Source: Candidatus Firestoneibacteriota bacterium
GTDB taxonomy: Bacteria; Oederibacteriota; D2-FULL-39-29; JBDRBU01
Assembly: GCA_043822305.1 (NCBI GenBank)
Contig: JBDRBU010000034.1
Location: forward strand, 1 to 52,911
Direction of reading: 5' to 3'
Length of the DNA stretch: 52,911 nt
Positions 24,758 to 30,700 of the stretch are shown one piece after another. Position numbers: made by a program. Positions within the stretch are counted from its first letter, which is position 1, and each line of letters begins with the position of its first letter.

Positions 24758-27700
24758 TGATAAATCAAAAAAATTTATGAAAAAATCAAAATTAATAACT
24801 GTTTTACCTTTTATTATTTCTTTATTTTTTTATTTACTAACAATTTGTCCCACTTTATATATTGGAGATGATGGCGAGATTGTTTCGGCAGCATATACTT
24901 TAGGCATTTCACATCCACCAGGTTATCCGCTATACACTATTTTAGGAAAAATATTTACTTATTTGCCTTTAAGCAATATTGCTTTTAGGATAAATCTTCT
25001 ATCTGCGTTTTTTGGGAGTCTGACAATATTATTATTATTCCTTACTTTATCCACTTTATTCACTTTTTCCACTTCAACCACTTCTTTCACTTTCCCCACT
25101 TTATTCGCTTCTTTGTTGTTTGCTTTTTCTTCAACATTTTGGTCGGCTAGTTTGCATGTGAAAGGGGGAATTTATACCTTAAATACATTTTTCATAATAT
25201 CTCTTTTTTATGTTTTACTAATAAATAGTCCAAATTTATTTGGTTTACTTCTGGGATTTGGTTTAGCGAACCATAATACACTTAGTTTATTTATACCCTC
25301 ATTTCTAATATTCATCTATGTCTATAGAAGAAACTGGCTAAAATTTAGTATTTTAAAATATATTTTGTTGCTGATATTTATCGGTTTATCCACTTATTTA
25401 TATTTAATAATCAGAGCAAATGCAAAACCATTGATGAATTGGGGTGACCCTTATAATCTTGAAAGAGCAATTTATCATATTTTCAGGAAACAATATGGCG
25501 AAATAAGTAAATGGCCGCATACAGTTGTTTCATTTATTAATATATGTAGTGTTTACTGGAAATGGTTGCTTAAAGAATTTACTCCGTATTTGCTGATTCT
25601 TATTCCATTTGGTGTATATAAATTTTACAAATTGGACAAAAAATTGTTTTGGATATTTATGTTTACTACCTTGACAACAATTTTTGGAATGATATATGTT
25701 TTAAATTTTGAAATTACCCCAAGGAATATCTATGTTTATGGGGTGTTTTTTATACCATCATTTATGTTTATATCTTTGTTTATAGGATCGGGATTATTTT
25801 TTCTAATAGAAAAGTTAAAATTCGTGAGTTATGTAATACCATTATTTGTATTGTTGCCCTTAATGAATAATTATTCTCGAGTAGATTTAAGTAAAAATTA
25901 TATTGCTTGTAATTACGGGATAAATATTTTAAAGACTGTAGATAAAGATGGAATATTGTTTACTGAAGGCGACAATCAGATGTTTGTCTTAGCCTATTTA
26001 CAGTATGTTGAAGGGATTAGAAAAGATGTTAGTATATATGACGATATAGGTTGTATATTTAAAAATATCTATGGGGAGAATTTCTTAAGACTTTCAAAAA
26101 TTGAAAAGGATGCCATTAGAAATAAAGCACAAAAAGAAATTATTGATAAAACAAATAGTTCTGTTTACATTCCAATAGTAAGTAGTAAAAGAGAAACTAT
26201 GGGATATTTTAAAAAAGAGCAGAATGGAATACTTTATAAAATTGTGAAAACCACACAGTTGAAAATCCAAAAAGATTTTAAAGATTATTACAACTTATCT
26301 GAAATTGAAAATAATTATGAGGATTATCTGGTTAGAGATATAATTGCTCAGTACTATTTCGCTTTTGGAGAATATTATTTTACTAAAGGAGAAAAACAAA
26401 AGAGTTTAGAGTATTTTGAAAAATGCGGTTTAGTTGGATATGATTCAGAGTGGGTATTTAATAATCTGGGTGTGGTTTATTTAGAGAAAGGATTTAAGGA
26501 GAAAGCATTGGAATATGCCCAAAAATCAATTTCAGTTAATCCAGATTCTGCAAAAGATCACGCAAATCTGGGTGTTATGTTTTATCAGCAAGGTAAATAT
26601 AATGAGGCCATAAATGCTTATCATAAGGCACTTGAATTAAATAGTAATTATGCAGAAGCATATAATGGTTTAGGAACTGTATATGGTCTTGCGAATGAGA
26701 ATGATAAATCTATAAAATGTTATGAAACGGCGATATCTTTAAAACCAAATTATGTGGAGGCCATAGCCAACATGGGAATAGTTTATCATAATAAAGGAGA
26801 AATAGATAAAGCAATAGAACTGTATAGAAAAGCCATCTTCATTAGTCCTAATTATTCAGATGCACATAATAATCTGGGTGTTTCATACGAATCCAAAGGG
26901 CTACTTGATGAAGCATTATCTGAATATAGGAAATCCCTGGAATTTAATCCTAATAAGCCAGATGCATATCATAATATTGGAGTTATATATTATAAACAAG
27001 GAAAATATAAAGAAGCAATTACAGAATGGGAGAAAACATTATCTTTGGATCCGAACTATATTAAAGCAAAACAGAATATAGAGTTAACAAAGAAAAAATT
27101 TAAGCATTGACACCGTCAATGCACTCCAAAAAATAAAAATGAAAAAAATTATAATATTAATATTGTTTTTGCTGACAATTGGGTTGAAACTTTATTTATA
27201 TAAACAAAATACTGATTTTAATGAAAAATCTGATTTTTGTTTATTCAGGGTAGAGTCGGCCATAAGGTATCATTATGCAAAATTAGTGGCCTATGGAGAA
27301 AATATTCCTAAGATAGATACCAATGCCCAGTATCCGGAAGGTTTAAAAGTCAAAGATAGAATAAAATTAACAACAGAATACATAACAGGAATATTGTATC
27401 AGTTTATACCCAACACAGTTCCTTTCCATGTTTTTTTAATTTACTTTATGTTTACTATCTCAAGTATAACAGTTTTTATTGTTTATTTAATATCGTTTAA
27501 ACTTTCAAAAAATTTTTATGGTTCTATTTTGTCCTGTTTGTTTTATATAACCGCATTTCCATCATACGCCAGGACAGTGGCTGGAGGATTTGTTGAAGAA
27601 GATTTTGCCTTGCCTTTTATATTTTTAAGTTTTTTGTTTTTTTTAAAGTCTCTTGAGCATAGCCAAAAATACCTGTATCCATTTTTATGTGGTTTGTTTT

Positions 27701-30700
27701 TATTCATTCCATTAACTTCATGGCATTTAACACAATTTTATTTTACTTTGTTTTTAATATTTATAATATTTCAATTTTTTAGAAAATTTGAAGAAAGAGA
27801 TAAAATTATATTACCGTTTTTATTTATTATTAGTTTTAACATATTAGGCGGAATTTTTGTCCCAACATTAAATTCGGAGAACTTCTTATTTTCATATAAT
27901 ATGCTAATCTCGTATTCGTTAATAATGATTTGGATTGTGGCTAAGCATATTAAGATGAACAAATGGATTTCGCTCGTTACATTTGTTGTTTTGATTATTT
28001 TTGTTCTAACATTGTTTTCATTTTTGACAAGTAGTCACAAAGCAGAATACAGTCATGTTTATTCTCTTGTTTTGTATAAAATTATATATTTTGGTAAAAA
28101 ACCCGACGACCCAAGTTCAATGCCATTTGATGCAAAAGTATTCTGGCAAGCAGGTTTTTTAAATCCCTCATTAAAAAATATTATAGTAAGTTTTGGTGGG
28201 ATTTTTATTATAGCCTTATTTGGAATTATTTTAACAATCTTTAAATTTGTAAAAAACAAAACAGAAACAACCGAAGAAGGATTATTATATTTTGTTTTAG
28301 TGTTTTTACCGCTTTATCTTTTATTTGAAAGATTGTATGTTTTTTTAATATTTTTTATGGCACCATATGTAAGTTTAATATTTAATTTAAAATTTCAATT
28401 ACCTGAAAAAACTAATAAAATAATATTAACTTGTATTTTATTCTCGGGAATAGTTTTTCAATCTTATTCAGGGTTTTCATATGATATAAAAATAAAAGAT
28501 GCAGATGTTCATAACGATGTAGTTAGATGGTTAAAAGAAAACACAAAAGAAGAGGATTCTGTCTTAGCCAATTTTGGTTTTTCAGCATCAATTTTCACAT
28601 ATAGTCAAAGACCAATTGTTCTTCATCCAATGTTTGAATCAAAAGATATCAGGGACAAGACAAAGGAATGTTATGAGGCGATATTTAATAAAGAAGAAGA
28701 TTTTTATAAACTTTGCAAGAAATATAAGATAAAAATATTTATATATGATTGGCATTATATTTTAGATAAATCAAAGAATTCCATAAGATATCAGATAAAT
28801 CAAAACAATCTTTTTAAAGAATCAGTTGCGTTTAATTTTCATTTTTATCCGGAAAGACTTAAACATTTTAGTTTATTATATCAGAATACATATTATAGGG
28901 TTTATAAAGTTAATGAAATAGATGAAAAACCTTATGTAGCCCAGGATCTTTCTTATAAGCCATTTTTTAATCCAAAAATATTTGTCCTGGAAGACAATTT
29001 GCCTTATTTAAATGATGAGTACACTCAAAAAGTTATGGAGAAAGTCTGGGATATCCCGAATGTTTTGAACATAGCAAATTTGCATAGGAAACAAAAAAGG
29101 AATGACTTAGCAGAGATTGAGTATAAAAAAATAATATCCATAGACCCGTATTTCCCAGAGGCGAGGGTATCACTGGCTGAATTTTATTTGTCAGTTGGTA
29201 GATACAAAGAAGCAATACAGGAATGCAAAATTGCGGTAGAATTAAATGAGCACTTTTTAGATGCGTATTATTTTTTAAGCCAAGGTTATTGTAAAAATGG
29301 AGAAATAAAAAAAGCAATAGAAGTTTTAAAAGATGCCTTAAAAATTGCACCAAACCATGAAGGAATAAAAAATACTTTATTGATGTTAGAGAAAGATTAA
29401 TGTTAATGTAGTCGCAGGGTTTAGCCGGCGAAAGTGAAGAAAATAATTGAAAAAGAATAAAGTATTTTATATAATGAATAATATGGAAATACAAAATGTT
29501 AAGGATATAATATCAAAAGAAATCTCAAGAGCTCTTGCCTTAAAAGAGATAAACAAAATTTATTTAAGTGATAGAATAGGAACTAATCCTGCTTTTAATA
29601 AAACTGCTAATTATGTTTATAATCGATTAAAAAAGATTGGATTAAAAGATGTAGAAAAAGTTTTTTATAAGGCAGATGGTAAGACTTTAATCTCTGACTG
29701 GAGACCTTCTCCTGCTTGGGATTGTAAAAAAGCTTCTCTTAAGATTTTAGAACCAAAAAGATTTGCAAGAACTTTAGTGAAGTTTCCTGATAATCTATTA
29801 TGTGTTGCCGCCAATAGTGGACCTACACCAAAAGAAGGGATTATGGGACGGGTTATGTTAGTCGAAAAAGTTTCTGATTTAAATAAAGCAAAGGGAAAGA
29901 TTATTTTTACACAATTAAAAATAAGCAATATTAGAAAAGAAATAGTTAAAAATAAAGTATCTGGAGTAATTTCAAGTTCTGTTTTTAACCAATCTAATTA
30001 TAAAAAAGGTATTTATAAAGATAATATAATATACTGGGAGAATGTATGGCACGCAAGACCAAACGAAGTTAATTTCTTTGCATTTAAGATTACTCCAAGG
30101 GATGGGGAATTTTTAAAAGAAATTTTAAAAAATGGCGAAAGATTAGTTGTGAAAGCATACATAAATGCAAAAAATTATAGTGGAAAAATTCCAACTGTTA
30201 GTGCCGTAATTCCTGGAAAGAATTTAAAAGAAGAAGTAGTAGTAGTTGGACATTTATATGAAATAGGAGCAAATGATAATGCTTCAGGCACAGGACTTAT
30301 GATAGAAATAGCCAGAACCTTAAATACTTTAATAAAAAATAAAATATTAGATAAACCAGAAAGAAGCATCAGATTTTTATTTGTTTTTGAATGTTTTGGA
30401 ACATTAGATTGGTTGATGAAAAATAAAAATAAAAAGTTTATGGCTGGATTAAATTTAGATATGATAGGAGAGAATCAGTCAATTTGTGGCAGTACGATTT
30501 TACTAAATGTATCATCTGAAGAAGTTCCTTCTTTTGTTAATGAACTGATTATCAGTTTATTTGAAGATATATCAAAAGAGTATCCTTTAATTCGTTGGAC
30601 TACTCATTCACCGTCAATCGATGATGGAACATTATTTTCGGACCCGGTGATAGGTGCAGGAACCCCATTTATATATCAACAGCCAGACCCTTATTATCAT

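Follow-up and report, generated by a model that had tools for sequence, protein, structure and literature searches.

Two intact TPR-bearing GT-C glycosyltransferases, homologues of eukaryotic TMEM260 and DPY19, in a Candidatus Firestoneibacteriota genome

Two neighbouring open reading frames in a 52,911-nucleotide contig of a Candidatus Firestoneibacteriota bacterium (JBDRBU010000034.1, whose full length is called the window here) encode homologues of the eukaryotic glycosyltransferases TMEM260, which in animals mannosylates receptor domains (ORF A), and DPY19, which mannosylates tryptophan (ORF B), each ending in TPR repeats. Both were found intact at the positions given by the initial annotation, with the DPY19-like protein and its TPRs directly 3′ of the TMEM260-like one, and both are probably active. 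They are best explained as two independent GT-C polyprenyl-phosphate-sugar transferases that face the periplasm and probably act on exported proteins, a reading that we hold with a probability of about 0.5. Their parts are as follows.

24777..27110, + strand: ORF A, TMEM260-like (GT117-type) GT-C glycosyltransferase with C-terminal TPR array, 777 aa (open reading frame, PF11028 and 9rql match)
24777..25865, + strand: ORF A membrane core, about aa 1-363 (9rql alignment, crude hydropathy, paralog conservation)
24867-24869, + strand: ORF A core residue D31, which with H46, R237 and Y240 corresponds to TMEM260 D52, H67, R264 and Y267 (9rql alignment)
25929..26441, + strand: ORF A putative periplasmic Rossmann-like palm, about aa 385-555, end approximate (extent deduced)
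25971-25973, + strand: ORF A D399, equivalent of the TMEM260 catalytic base D441 (ILFTEGDNQ... aligned to IILLRGDLP...)
26442..27086, + strand: ORF A TPR array, about aa 556-770, at least six repeats (Pfam TPR_1 and TPR_2, six stretches each)
27104..27122, no strand: palindromic hairpin spanning the ORF A stop codon, in the 28-base spacer between the ORFs (terminator-like scan)
27139..29400, + strand: ORF B, DPY19-like (GT98-type) GT-C glycosyltransferase with C-terminal TPRs, 753 aa (open reading frame, PF10034 and 7zlg match)
27139..28476, + strand: ORF B membrane core, about aa 1-446 (family-profile alignment, hydropathy)
27253-27255, 27571-27573 and 28330-28332: ORF B core residues E39, R145 and R398, which with E154 correspond to DPY-19 Glu71, Arg211, Arg471 and, for E154, Glu220
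Within the membrane core, + strand: ORF B F335 and F340, equivalents of DPY-19 Tyr395 and Phe401 (profile alignment)
28477..29058, + strand: ORF B putative periplasmic dome, about aa 447-640 (alignments and column counts)
Within the dome: ORF B H496-P497-M498-F499-E500, equivalent of DPY-19 H575-P576-H577-Y578-E579 (alignment)
29068..29373, + strand: ORF B TPR repeats, aa 644-745, about three (Pfam TPR families; PDB consensus TPR proteins matched)

The hairpin has its T-run solely on the minus strand and appeared in the terminator-like scan as a minus-strand entry only.

Homology to TMEM260 and DPY19

ORF A matched the Pfam TMEM260-like family (PF11028) over residues 31-185 (E 3.8e-26, 92.4 bits, cut-off 24.2), along with TPR families, and human TMEM260 (GT117, PDB 9rql-9rqn) over residues 18-423 (E 6.3e-33 against 9rql), a match that covers the membrane core and runs into the beginning of the Rossmann-like domain and by its strength makes ORF A a true homologue and no loose look-alike. 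In this alignment five of the six functional residues of the human enzyme are kept, catalytic base included. The equivalents of the donor-site residues D52, H67 and Y267 and of D441 are found in all nine TMEM260-like paralogs of the genome and that of R264, also a donor-site residue, in eight. The sixth residue, R355 of helix 10, contacts mannose according to the preprint that assigns the TMEM260 residue roles (10.64898/2026.03.17.711096); its equivalent is V323 in ORF A and arginine in one of nine paralogs, a weak result because the alignment is gapped at this place. The two proteins also share the order of core, palm and TPR. The human TPR is a five-helix fold which, in that preprint, alone binds the acceptor peptide and holds it extended, whereas the ORF A array is longer and canonical and lies in a soluble tail of 415 aa behind the hydrophobic core (crude hydropathy).

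ORF B matched Pfam Dpy19 (PF10034) in two stretches (E 1.2e-25, 90.2 bits, cut-off 27.2), and the six-frame search returned the same two stretches at 27196-28071 (2.2e-12) and 28294-28911 (7.1e-15). As a single sequence it matched C. elegans DPY-19 (7zlg) with an E of 1.6e-7; a TPR-free profile of its family matched 7zlg at 1.4e-26 (96.3 bits) and STT3 at 2.7e-10 (42.5 bits), making DPY-19 the closest solved relative over core and dome (profile 15-555 against residues 28-623). C. elegans DPY-19 and human DPY19L1-L4 (PF10034, PDB 7zlg-7zlj) are tryptophan C-mannosyltransferases, which use dolichyl-phosphate mannose as donor to mannosylate C2 of the Trp in WxxW/C, and DPY-19 has 13 transmembrane helices and a luminal C-terminal dome. 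In DPY-19, a CAZy GT98 enzyme (PMC6801728), Glu71 is catalytic and Arg211 and Arg471 bind phosphate (PMC10154233). Among the 37 aligned members of the bacterial family the Glu71 equivalent is glutamate in 36, the equivalents of Arg211, Glu220, Arg471 and Glu579 are kept in every one, and the motif HP-x-[FY]-E is conserved. The family-profile match identifies ORF B as a true homologue of eukaryotic DPY19. Its hydrophobic stretches end by residue 446 and are followed by a soluble tail of 307 aa (crude hydropathy). Unlike DPY-19, which resides in the ER, this putative enzyme is bacterial, so its dome would be periplasmic, and it has added C-terminal TPRs.

The bacterial family that includes ORF B is large and unstudied, with 857 clusters at 50% identity, found in metagenome-assembled genomes of more than ten phyla and fused to TPRs in most; by Pfam column count TPRs occur in 30 of the 44 listed members. 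Within the phylum Dpy19 was above cut-off in 3 of 99 genomes (this one, G013 and G014) rather than in the 1 of 98 first reported. Bacterial proteins combining GT-C and TPRs have been noted in print as uncharacterised (PMC7801869). A GT-C core with a TPR array behind it, on the luminal or periplasmic side, is the design shared by ORF A, ORF B, TMTC1-4 and the full-length bacterial homologues of the latter (GT105); TMTC1-4 belong to a different GT-C family, and ORF A and ORF B have no Pfam PMT_2 match.

Proposed reaction and candidate protein acceptors

Both enzymes would sit in the inner membrane with active sites and C-terminal domains on the periplasmic side. The donor for ORF B, unlike that of DPY-19, must be a bacterial polyprenyl phosphate sugar, and for both enzymes a polyprenyl-phosphate-monosaccharide may be made at the cytoplasmic face by GT2 synthases and then flipped. 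Two GT2 genes, on contigs C85 and C67, resemble polyprenyl-phosphate-sugar synthases (PpgS, AglJ or dolichyl-phosphate hexose transferase in NCBIfam, under cut-off) and are candidates for this step. The gene near a PMT gene on contig C98 that had been named as polyprenyl-phosphate-mannose-synthase-like turned out to be a generic GT2, its best NCBIfam matches being MftF- or EpsD-like and all under cut-off. Each enzyme would move a single sugar, with inversion, to an envelope acceptor: ORF A to Ser/Thr by O-glycosylation with D399 as base, and ORF B with E39, R145 and R398 used as DPY-19 uses Glu71, Arg211 and Arg471. The sugar most likely goes to extended stretches of exported proteins, because canonical TPR arrays stand behind both catalytic domains, as the TPR of TMEM260 holds its peptide. 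GT-C enzymes that O-mannosylate proteins in bacteria are known from earlier work (cited in PMC6801728). TPRs can also dock to envelope machines and not to substrates, which counts against a protein acceptor.

Human TMEM260 is an IPT-domain protein O-mannosyltransferase of CAZy family GT117 (PMC10214176), as the initial annotation had stated. Its proposal that the TMEM260-like enzymes here act on IPT/TIG domains did not fare as well. With crude ORF calling, 22 TIG matches in seven ORFs were obtained in place of TIG in five, and the sequon core of the human enzyme (G-P plus [GA]-G-G-x-x-[ST], from P-x5/6-P-x3-G-P-x2-[GA]-G-G-x2-[TS]) was present in none of the 22 repeats. All 22 carry P-x6-P-x2-G with a hydroxyl residue in the B-strand, and since TMEM260 is reported to tolerate sequon variation (a second preprint), TIG clients may still be among the acceptors. 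TIG ORFs and TMEM260-like genes have no contig in common, in agreement with the separation described before, and the genes neighbouring ORF A and ORF B encode no plausible client.

The broader claim that these enzymes are protein O- and C-mannosyltransferases thus stands in part. Homology and catalytic residues support it; the TIG sequences and the unconserved adjacency of the two genes do not, and the analysis gave no tie to protein acceptors beyond the TPRs, nor any to mannose, IPT/TIG or tryptophan.

Gene neighbourhoods and possible non-protein acceptors

It is possible, although we consider it the less probable course, that ORF A, ORF B or both place their sugar on lipid A, on the LPS core or on some other glycan or lipid of the envelope, with the TPRs docking to an envelope assembly machine. 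ArnT (GT83), which acts on lipid A, is a bacterial GT-C enzyme using a polyprenyl-phosphate monosaccharide and the model for such a class; TfpW of Pseudomonas aeruginosa, a GT-C enzyme reportedly transferring a monosaccharide from polyprenyl phosphate to pilin Ser/Thr, is the model for the protein-acceptor class. Unlike these, ORF A and ORF B have no detectable membership in either family, and ArnT has no TPRs.

Non-protein acceptors draw support from one paralog of ORF A. The genome has nine full TMEM260-like ORFs and one broken fragment (C101:12001-12442), and the reported five PMT/PMT_2, three YfhO and one GT87 ORFs were likewise recovered. The other 11 genomes of the order hold 2-12 TMEM260-like matches each, also as reported, and with the expansion found in 93 of 99 genomes of the phylum the copy number here is ordinary. 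Two paralogs are without TPRs, unlike human TMEM260, and adjoin LPS or sugar-nucleotide genes, which fits a TPR accompanying a protein acceptor. One of them, short and on contig C74, closes the operon DUF374-waaA-lpxK-lpxL-GT9; in 10/10 other genomes of the order that have its orthologue, the gene immediately upstream of that orthologue is a GT9 gene, so that the TPR-less paralog follows an LPS heptosyltransferase gene in 11/11 genomes. The nine paralogs therefore cannot all be protein mannosyltransferases, and the family is not protein-restricted. Against extending this to ORF A, the LPS-linked paralog is the most divergent of the nine as well as lacking TPRs.

An ORF B orthologue directly follows waaA in the relatives G013 and G014, and an ORF A orthologue is followed by an ORF of 311-313 aa and lpxK-lpxL-GT9 in G014 and G016 (by Pfam) and in G013 (by gene lengths), whereas families f1 and f2 have the order waaA-lpxK-lpxL. 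These adjacencies, waaA with DPY19 and ORF A with lpxK, are the paired outcomes of a single reciprocal rearrangement that involves the lipid A/core operon and is confined to one genus. Almost every gene in these genomes also points the same way, so that same-strand adjacency says little. In a Planctomycetia locus (L035) a GT9 gene and the DPY19-like gene are two genes apart, but contexts across DPY19-like loci are heterogeneous and LPS genes are absent from most. Only in this genome are ORF A and ORF B neighbours, and their adjacency is no evidence of joint function.

Possible tryptophan glycosylation and remaining readings of ORF B

Returning to protein acceptors, the special case that ORF B and its TPR-bearing family are genuine C-glycosyltransferases acting on tryptophan, or on a different aromatic side chain, of proteins exported to the envelope is improbable in our estimation. 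It draws on the wide margin by which DPY-19 is the closest solved relative (96 against 42 bits for STT3) and on the retained catalytic Glu and both Arg, but this carboxylate and arginine set is common to O- and N-glycosylating GT-C enzymes. By sequence alignment alone, the Trp(0) cage positions of ORF B are all aromatic (F335, F340 and F499) and Pro576 is kept as P497, and over the 37 family members the cage is hydrophobic or aromatic, with Tyr395 as L26/F5/M5/T1, Phe401 as F24/L13, Tyr578 as F26/Y11 and Pro576 as P20/S11/N6; the Tyr395 position is thus mostly Leu, unlike DPY-19. The cation-pi clamp of Trp(+3), Lys473, is not kept, being Y400 in ORF B and a variable column in the family (Y8, S8, H7, E5 and others, n = 37), while Leu474 of the pocket floor aligns with V401, Val in 33/37. 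In the crude proteome WxxW occurs 105 times, a mild excess over the 74-88 of other Trp spacings, but no WxxW-repeat-rich protein was found, the sole W-x-x-W-x-x-[WC] run being one W-x-x-W-x-x-C, and the genome has no TSR (TSP_1) domains and thus no TSR-type clients. The DPY19-like gene is also absent at the corresponding locus of G015, a congener of G013 and G014 in which waaA is followed directly by a thyA-like gene, suggesting that it is dispensable there. C-mannosylation is not known outside metazoa and alveolates; were the family to C-glycosylate tryptophan, C-mannosylation would extend to bacteria and eukaryotic DPY19 would have its origin in this bacterial stock.

That either ORF is a catalytically dead scaffold or pseudoenzyme is very unlikely: one broken TMEM260-like copy exists on C101, but both ORFs are full length and the catalytic residues checked are kept and conserved across distant homologues.

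Least credible is an AglB/PglB-like oligosaccharyltransferase N-glycosylating Asn, as ORF B has NFGFS where STT3 has WWDYG and no WW anywhere, has Val in place of the leading acid of the D-x-E pair and is unmatched by Pfam STT3 at E up to 0.01, even though STT3 is its second-best solved relative, STT3/AglB clusters are its language-model neighbours after the bacterial Dpy19 cluster, and precomputed Pfam matches to STT3 exist for a few members of its family. Common to ORF B and STT3/AglB/PglB (PF02516, GT66) are the motif R-x-V-A-G...E in external loop 2 and a C-terminal domain of related type.

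Catalytic residues of ORF A and ORF B

The pair of TMEM260-like and DPY19-like genes proposed by the initial annotation consists of real reading frames, and the homology of both is deep and specific in Pfam, in PDB matches and at single residues, which justifies the two names.

24777-27110, + strand: ORF A, TMEM260-like, 777 aa, intact
27139-29400, + strand: ORF B, DPY19-like, 753 aa, intact, 28 bases from ORF A

ORF A matches the Pfam family TMEM260-like (PF11028) with 92.4 bits (cut-off 24.2) and has TPR_1 and TPR_2 matches in six stretches each; ORF B matches Dpy19 (PF10034) with 90.2 bits (cut-off 27.2) and carries TPRs at residues 644-745. 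Crude hydropathy gives a polytopic N-terminal part that ends near residue 362 in ORF A and near residue 446 in ORF B; soluble tails of 415 and 307 residues, respectively, come after it. NCBIfam holds no model for the catalytic domain of either protein. The mechanism that we favour, with a probability of about one half, is that ORF A and ORF B work in the periplasm and move single sugars from a carrier of the polyprenyl phosphate type onto exported proteins, which the TPRs would hold.

In a phmmer comparison of ORF A with all PDB sequences the single match was human TMEM260 (9rql; E 6.3e-33, residues 18-423). The human enzyme is described as having a sugar-recognition motif (D52, H67), a donor loop (R264, Y267), R355 in helix 10 and the catalytic base D441 in a luminal Rossmann-like domain, and its TPR alone is described as sufficient for binding of the acceptor peptide (10.64898/2026.03.17.711096). 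The phmmer alignment places D31, H46, R237, Y240, V323 and D399 of ORF A at D52, H67, R264, Y267, R355 and D441, and five of these six functional residues, the base included, are kept, R355 being aligned to V323 in a gapped stretch. Among the nine full-length paralogs of the genome, the equivalents of D52, H67, Y267 and D441 are present in all nine and that of R264 in eight. The split active site recently described for this human disease enzyme is kept by the bacterial paralogs. The term 'DUF2723' occurred in one paper only of the literature searched, which excludes most subscription journals.

Taken by themselves, residues 1-640 of ORF B hit C. elegans DPY-19 (7zlg) with E 1.6e-7 and an STT3 with E 3.5e-4. 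A profile of 37 family members with the TPRs removed gave E 1.4e-26 (96.3 bits, profile positions 15-555 versus residues 28-623) against 7zlg and E 2.7e-10 against STT3. Residue roles described for DPY-19 (Bloch et al. 2023, PMC10154233) were mapped by profile alignment and are given with column counts from the same 37 members in the table. The STT3 signature WWDYG is missing from ORF B, where the aligned place reads NFGFS and no WW occurs in the whole protein. On the donor side, the ORF B family thus retains the DPY-19 site in full. The Trp(0) site is predicted to be still hydrophobic or aromatic, and the Trp(+3) site is not kept.

Table. Functional residues of C. elegans DPY-19 (CeDPY-19) and their equivalents in ORF B and its family
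CeDPY-19; ORF B; family column
Glu71 (catalytic); E39; E 36/37
Arg211; R145; R 37/37
Glu220; E154; E 37/37
Arg471; R398; R 37/37
Glu579; E500; E 37/37
Tyr395, Trp(0) cage; F335; L26, F5, M5, T1
Phe401, Trp(0) cage; F340; F24, L13
Tyr578, Trp(0) cage; F499; F26, Y11
Lys473, Trp(+3) clamp; Y400; variable
Leu474, Trp(+3) floor; V401; V 33/37

Paralogs, gene order and the lipopolysaccharide connection

The main rival reading, in our view less likely than protein glycosylation by ORF A and ORF B, is that the acceptor is a non-protein component of the envelope. The TMEM260-like paralogs of the genome are old, their membrane cores being 29-55% identical (median 40%) and their tails 31% (median). Seven have tails of 302-411 residues counted from the palm start, and two, on contigs C74 (617 aa) and C107 (621 aa), are short and without TPRs. 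The C74 paralog is the last gene of an operon DUF374-waaA-lpxK-lpxL-GT9 (C74:25666-31827, L060). This type is present in 11 of the 12 genomes of the order, and in all ten others that have it a GT9 heptosyltransferase gene lies directly upstream (L066-L075); a gene of metallo-beta-lactamase fold follows in all eight of those ten loci whose downstream ORF was scanned. The C74 paralog is a candidate LPS-core GT-C enzyme, and most likely at least one TMEM260-like paralog works on LPS and not on proteins. The proposal that all of them are protein mannosyltransferases thus probably fails on a paralog that closes a lipid A/core operon and is GT9-linked wherever it occurs in the order. Contrasting the TPR-bearing forms with the TPR-less, LPS-linked one could reveal how acceptor choice is encoded.

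The C107 paralog lies directly 3' of a sugar-1-phosphate nucleotidyltransferase gene, whose best NCBIfam match is mannose-1-phosphate guanylyltransferase (229.5 bits, below the cut-off of 440). A GT-C cluster on contig C85 (29377-40514, L056) starts with a GT2 gene (polyprenyl-phosphate-sugar-synthase-like), DUF2304 and a DUF2142/PMT_2 protein and continues with an unknown ORF, a PMT_2 protein, a small TPR protein, a CsgG-like lipoprotein, a deaminase and two convergent TMEM260-like genes. These sugar-nucleotide and GT2 neighbours make lipid-linked monosaccharide donors plausible for the TMEM260-like enzymes. The copy number is not special to this genome; the expansion is phylum-wide, with the family in 93 of 99 genomes, usually with 4-15 matches and at most 25. 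A broken TMEM260-like remnant lies at C101:12001-12442 (- strand); its two pieces are in different frames, and its PMT_2 match contains a TAG.

Orthologues of ORF A and ORF B also lie beside LPS genes in other genomes of the phylum, as listed in the table.

Table. Gene orders around ORF A, ORF B and the lipid A genes (G000, genome of the window; others, same phylum)
Genome; gene order
G000, window (Pfam); feoB, DtxR/FeoA-type regulator, obg, ORF A, ORF B, M28 peptidase, divergent thymidylate-synthase-like (thyA-like), URO-D-like
G000, C74; ptsI, nitroreductase, DUF374, waaA, lpxK, lpxL, GT9, short TMEM260-like
G013, G014; ptsI, DUF374, waaA, ORF B orthologue (~55% identity), thyA-like
G014, G016 (Pfam), G013 (gene lengths); feoB, regulator, obg, ORF A orthologue (49-52% identity), 311-313-aa ORF, lpxK, lpxL
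G006, G007, G008 (family f2); waaA, lpxK, lpxL
G015; waaA, then directly thyA-like

In G013 and G014, lpxL is followed by GT9 and the short TMEM260-like gene; in G016 the contig breaks off within the ORF after lpxL. The two layouts are one reciprocal exchange apart, with breakpoints directly after ORF A and directly after waaA. The junctions obg-ORF A / ORF B-thyA-like and waaA / lpxK-lpxL-GT9 of G000 are recombined in genus g5 as obg-ORF A orthologue / 311-313-aa ORF-lpxK-lpxL and waaA / ORF B orthologue-thyA-like (window 24760-29447; loci L052, L091-L093, L094-L103). The LPS neighbours of the ORF A and ORF B orthologues thus result from a single event in one genus, and the LPS link of the two ORFs, both adjacencies coming from that one rearrangement, is weakened. 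G015 has no DPY19-like gene at the waaA site, so the gene can be missing within one genus. The adjacency of ORF A and ORF B noted earlier is real in the window (28 bases), but it is a rearrangement product that is not conserved, and the pairing is therefore no evidence for joint function.

The window has a G+C content of about 30%, and its + strand carries nearly all ORFs (44 of 46 non-shadow ORFs of at least 120 aa over the whole window), with positive GC skew in every 2-kb window. Given this strong co-orientation, adjacency on the same strand tells little about function. A promoter/terminator scan, with 102 promoter-like sites versus 79 expected, was uninformative because the DNA is AT-rich. 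Downstream of ORF B the following pair was observed.

31266-33168, + strand: divergent thymidylate-synthase-like gene (archaeal-type model 134.6 bits, below the cut-off of 174.55), then URO-D-like gene

In G014, too, the DPY19-like gene has this pair downstream, and a thyA-like gene lies 3' of it in all three genomes that have a DPY19-like gene.

Candidate protein acceptors

Human TMEM260 O-mannosylates IPT domains, as the initial annotation had correctly stated (PMC10214176). With crude ORF calling, 22 TIG matches were found in seven ORFs on contigs C84, C20, C51, C17 and C18, and no TMEM260-like gene lies on any of the five, although the assembly is fragmented into 125 contigs, in agreement with the earlier remark that TIG and transferase genes are not neighbours. 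All 22 repeats have a P-x6-P-x2-G start and a Ser/Thr-bearing B-strand ('TTVSITG'); the human TMEM260 signature elements G-P and [GA]-G-G-x-x-[ST] occur in 0 of 22. TMEM260 is described as tolerating sequon variation and accepting Ser (10.64898/2026.09.21.753134), and for this reason the missing signature core decides neither way on TIG proteins as clients. The TIG family consists of large proteins of near-identical repeats ('PTVTNVVPSTGSN..TTVSITGSGFYGG'), one ORF of at least 2,850 aa ending at a contig edge.

True tryptophan C-glycosylation by ORF B, with which the retained donor side and the predicted aromatic Trp(0) site would agree, is in our view quite improbable, the Trp(+3) site being lost and no client having emerged from WxxW and TSR searches of the genome. 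No TSP_1 domain was found. A count over the 2,098 ORFs of a crudely called proteome gave 105 WxxW, versus 56 expected by composition and 74-88 for other Trp-Trp spacings. The same proteome has one W-x-x-W-x-x-[WC] run only, a W-x-x-W-x-x-C, and at most four W-x-x-[WC] motifs per protein. One source states that tryptophan C-mannosylation is confined to metazoans and alveolates (PMC6801728). In a 2026 review of C-mannosylation 'prokaryot' and 'archaea' are absent, and bacteria are named three times, each time on another subject (PMC12990085).

Range and neighbourhoods of the DPY19-like family

When ORF B residues 1-640 were run with HMMER over all 1.84 billion representatives, 857 proteins were found at E <=0.001, 692 at <=1e-10 and 361 at <=1e-30. 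The named relatives come from MAGs throughout, among them Candidatus Firestonebacteria (55-56% identity), Elusimicrobia, Planctomycetota/Pirellulales, Gemmatimonadota, Desulfobacterota-type, Kiritimatiellia, Verrucomicrobiota, Chlamydiae, WOR-3, TA06, Glassbacteria, Eisenbacteria and Auribacterota. Source-named matches of the alignment search were without exception bacterial or unclassified, and the relatives are named solely 'hypothetical protein' or 'tetratricopeptide repeat protein'. A TPR family is annotated in 30 of the 44 DPY19-like hits of one homologue listing. Within the phylum of the window Dpy19 scores above threshold in 3 of 99 genomes, each of them a member of the same order as the window. 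Among protein-language-model neighbours of ORF B a bacterial Dpy19 cluster came first, STT3/AglB clusters next. A FastTree of 37 sequences, rooted on one STT3-like protein and leaving out full-length L030, L042 and L043 and partial loci, has two clades. One comprises 12 sequences, which belong to Verrucomicrobiota, Chlamydiae, Auribacterota and unclassified MAGs; in the other, which bears TPRs, a group of Elusimicrobia is the sister of the window and G014.

The literature searched, most subscription journals lying outside it, yielded no account of DPY19 homologues from bacteria; for TMTC, full-length bacterial homologues (GT-C plus TPR) appear in print as uncharacterised (PMC7801869). The wider interest lies in this large, unstudied bacterial family with its DPY-19 catalytic set intact. 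With at least several hundred clusters it offers a small model of the chemistry that is easy to express, and a way to approach where DPY19 came from and how it relates to STT3/AglB. The window contributes the evidence at residue level and the size and range of the family; pairing and copy number are not special to its genome.

In the TPR-bearing clade no recurrent partner was found by Pfam on 87 flanking ORFs from 27 of 44 loci. Its neighbours are scattered: four Elusimicrobia-type loci have a TPR_12 protein upstream, two Pirellulales loci have MsrAB, and ManC, GT2, PMT_2 and GT9 occur in one locus each. Loci of the other clade (L033, L034, L038-L042, L044, L045, L047-L051) share a block conserved across phyla, with the order pilM/N, two unknown genes, secretin (N-terminal TPRs), (polA), DPY19-like, coaE, rho, prfA, prmC, EPSP-synthase-fold gene and trmD (Pfam checked on one locus, L040). 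In 13 of its 14 loci a secretin-family ORF is the first or second gene upstream of the DPY19-like one. As the housekeeping block (polA, coaE, rho, prfA, prmC) is conserved as a whole, this neighbourhood says little on DPY19-like function, and a pilus/secretin link for ORF B was set aside.

The window has a pilus cluster of its own, ending 5 kb upstream of ORF A with four unrelated genes intervening, and two further genes precede it.

4685-6634, + strand: 649 aa, hydrophobic N-terminal part, seven TPRs, weak PMT_2 match (21.7 bits, below cut-off); candidate for another GT-C plus TPR enzyme
6647-9484: DUF4175 protein, 945 aa
9557-19702, + strand: type IV pilus / type II secretion-like cluster with PilB-type ATPase, PilC-type platform, three pilin-like genes (12869-14953), PilM/N fusion, 444-aa unknown ORF and secretin

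None of the three pilin-like proteins contains WxxW, and the major pilin has an acidic Gly/Ser-rich tail.
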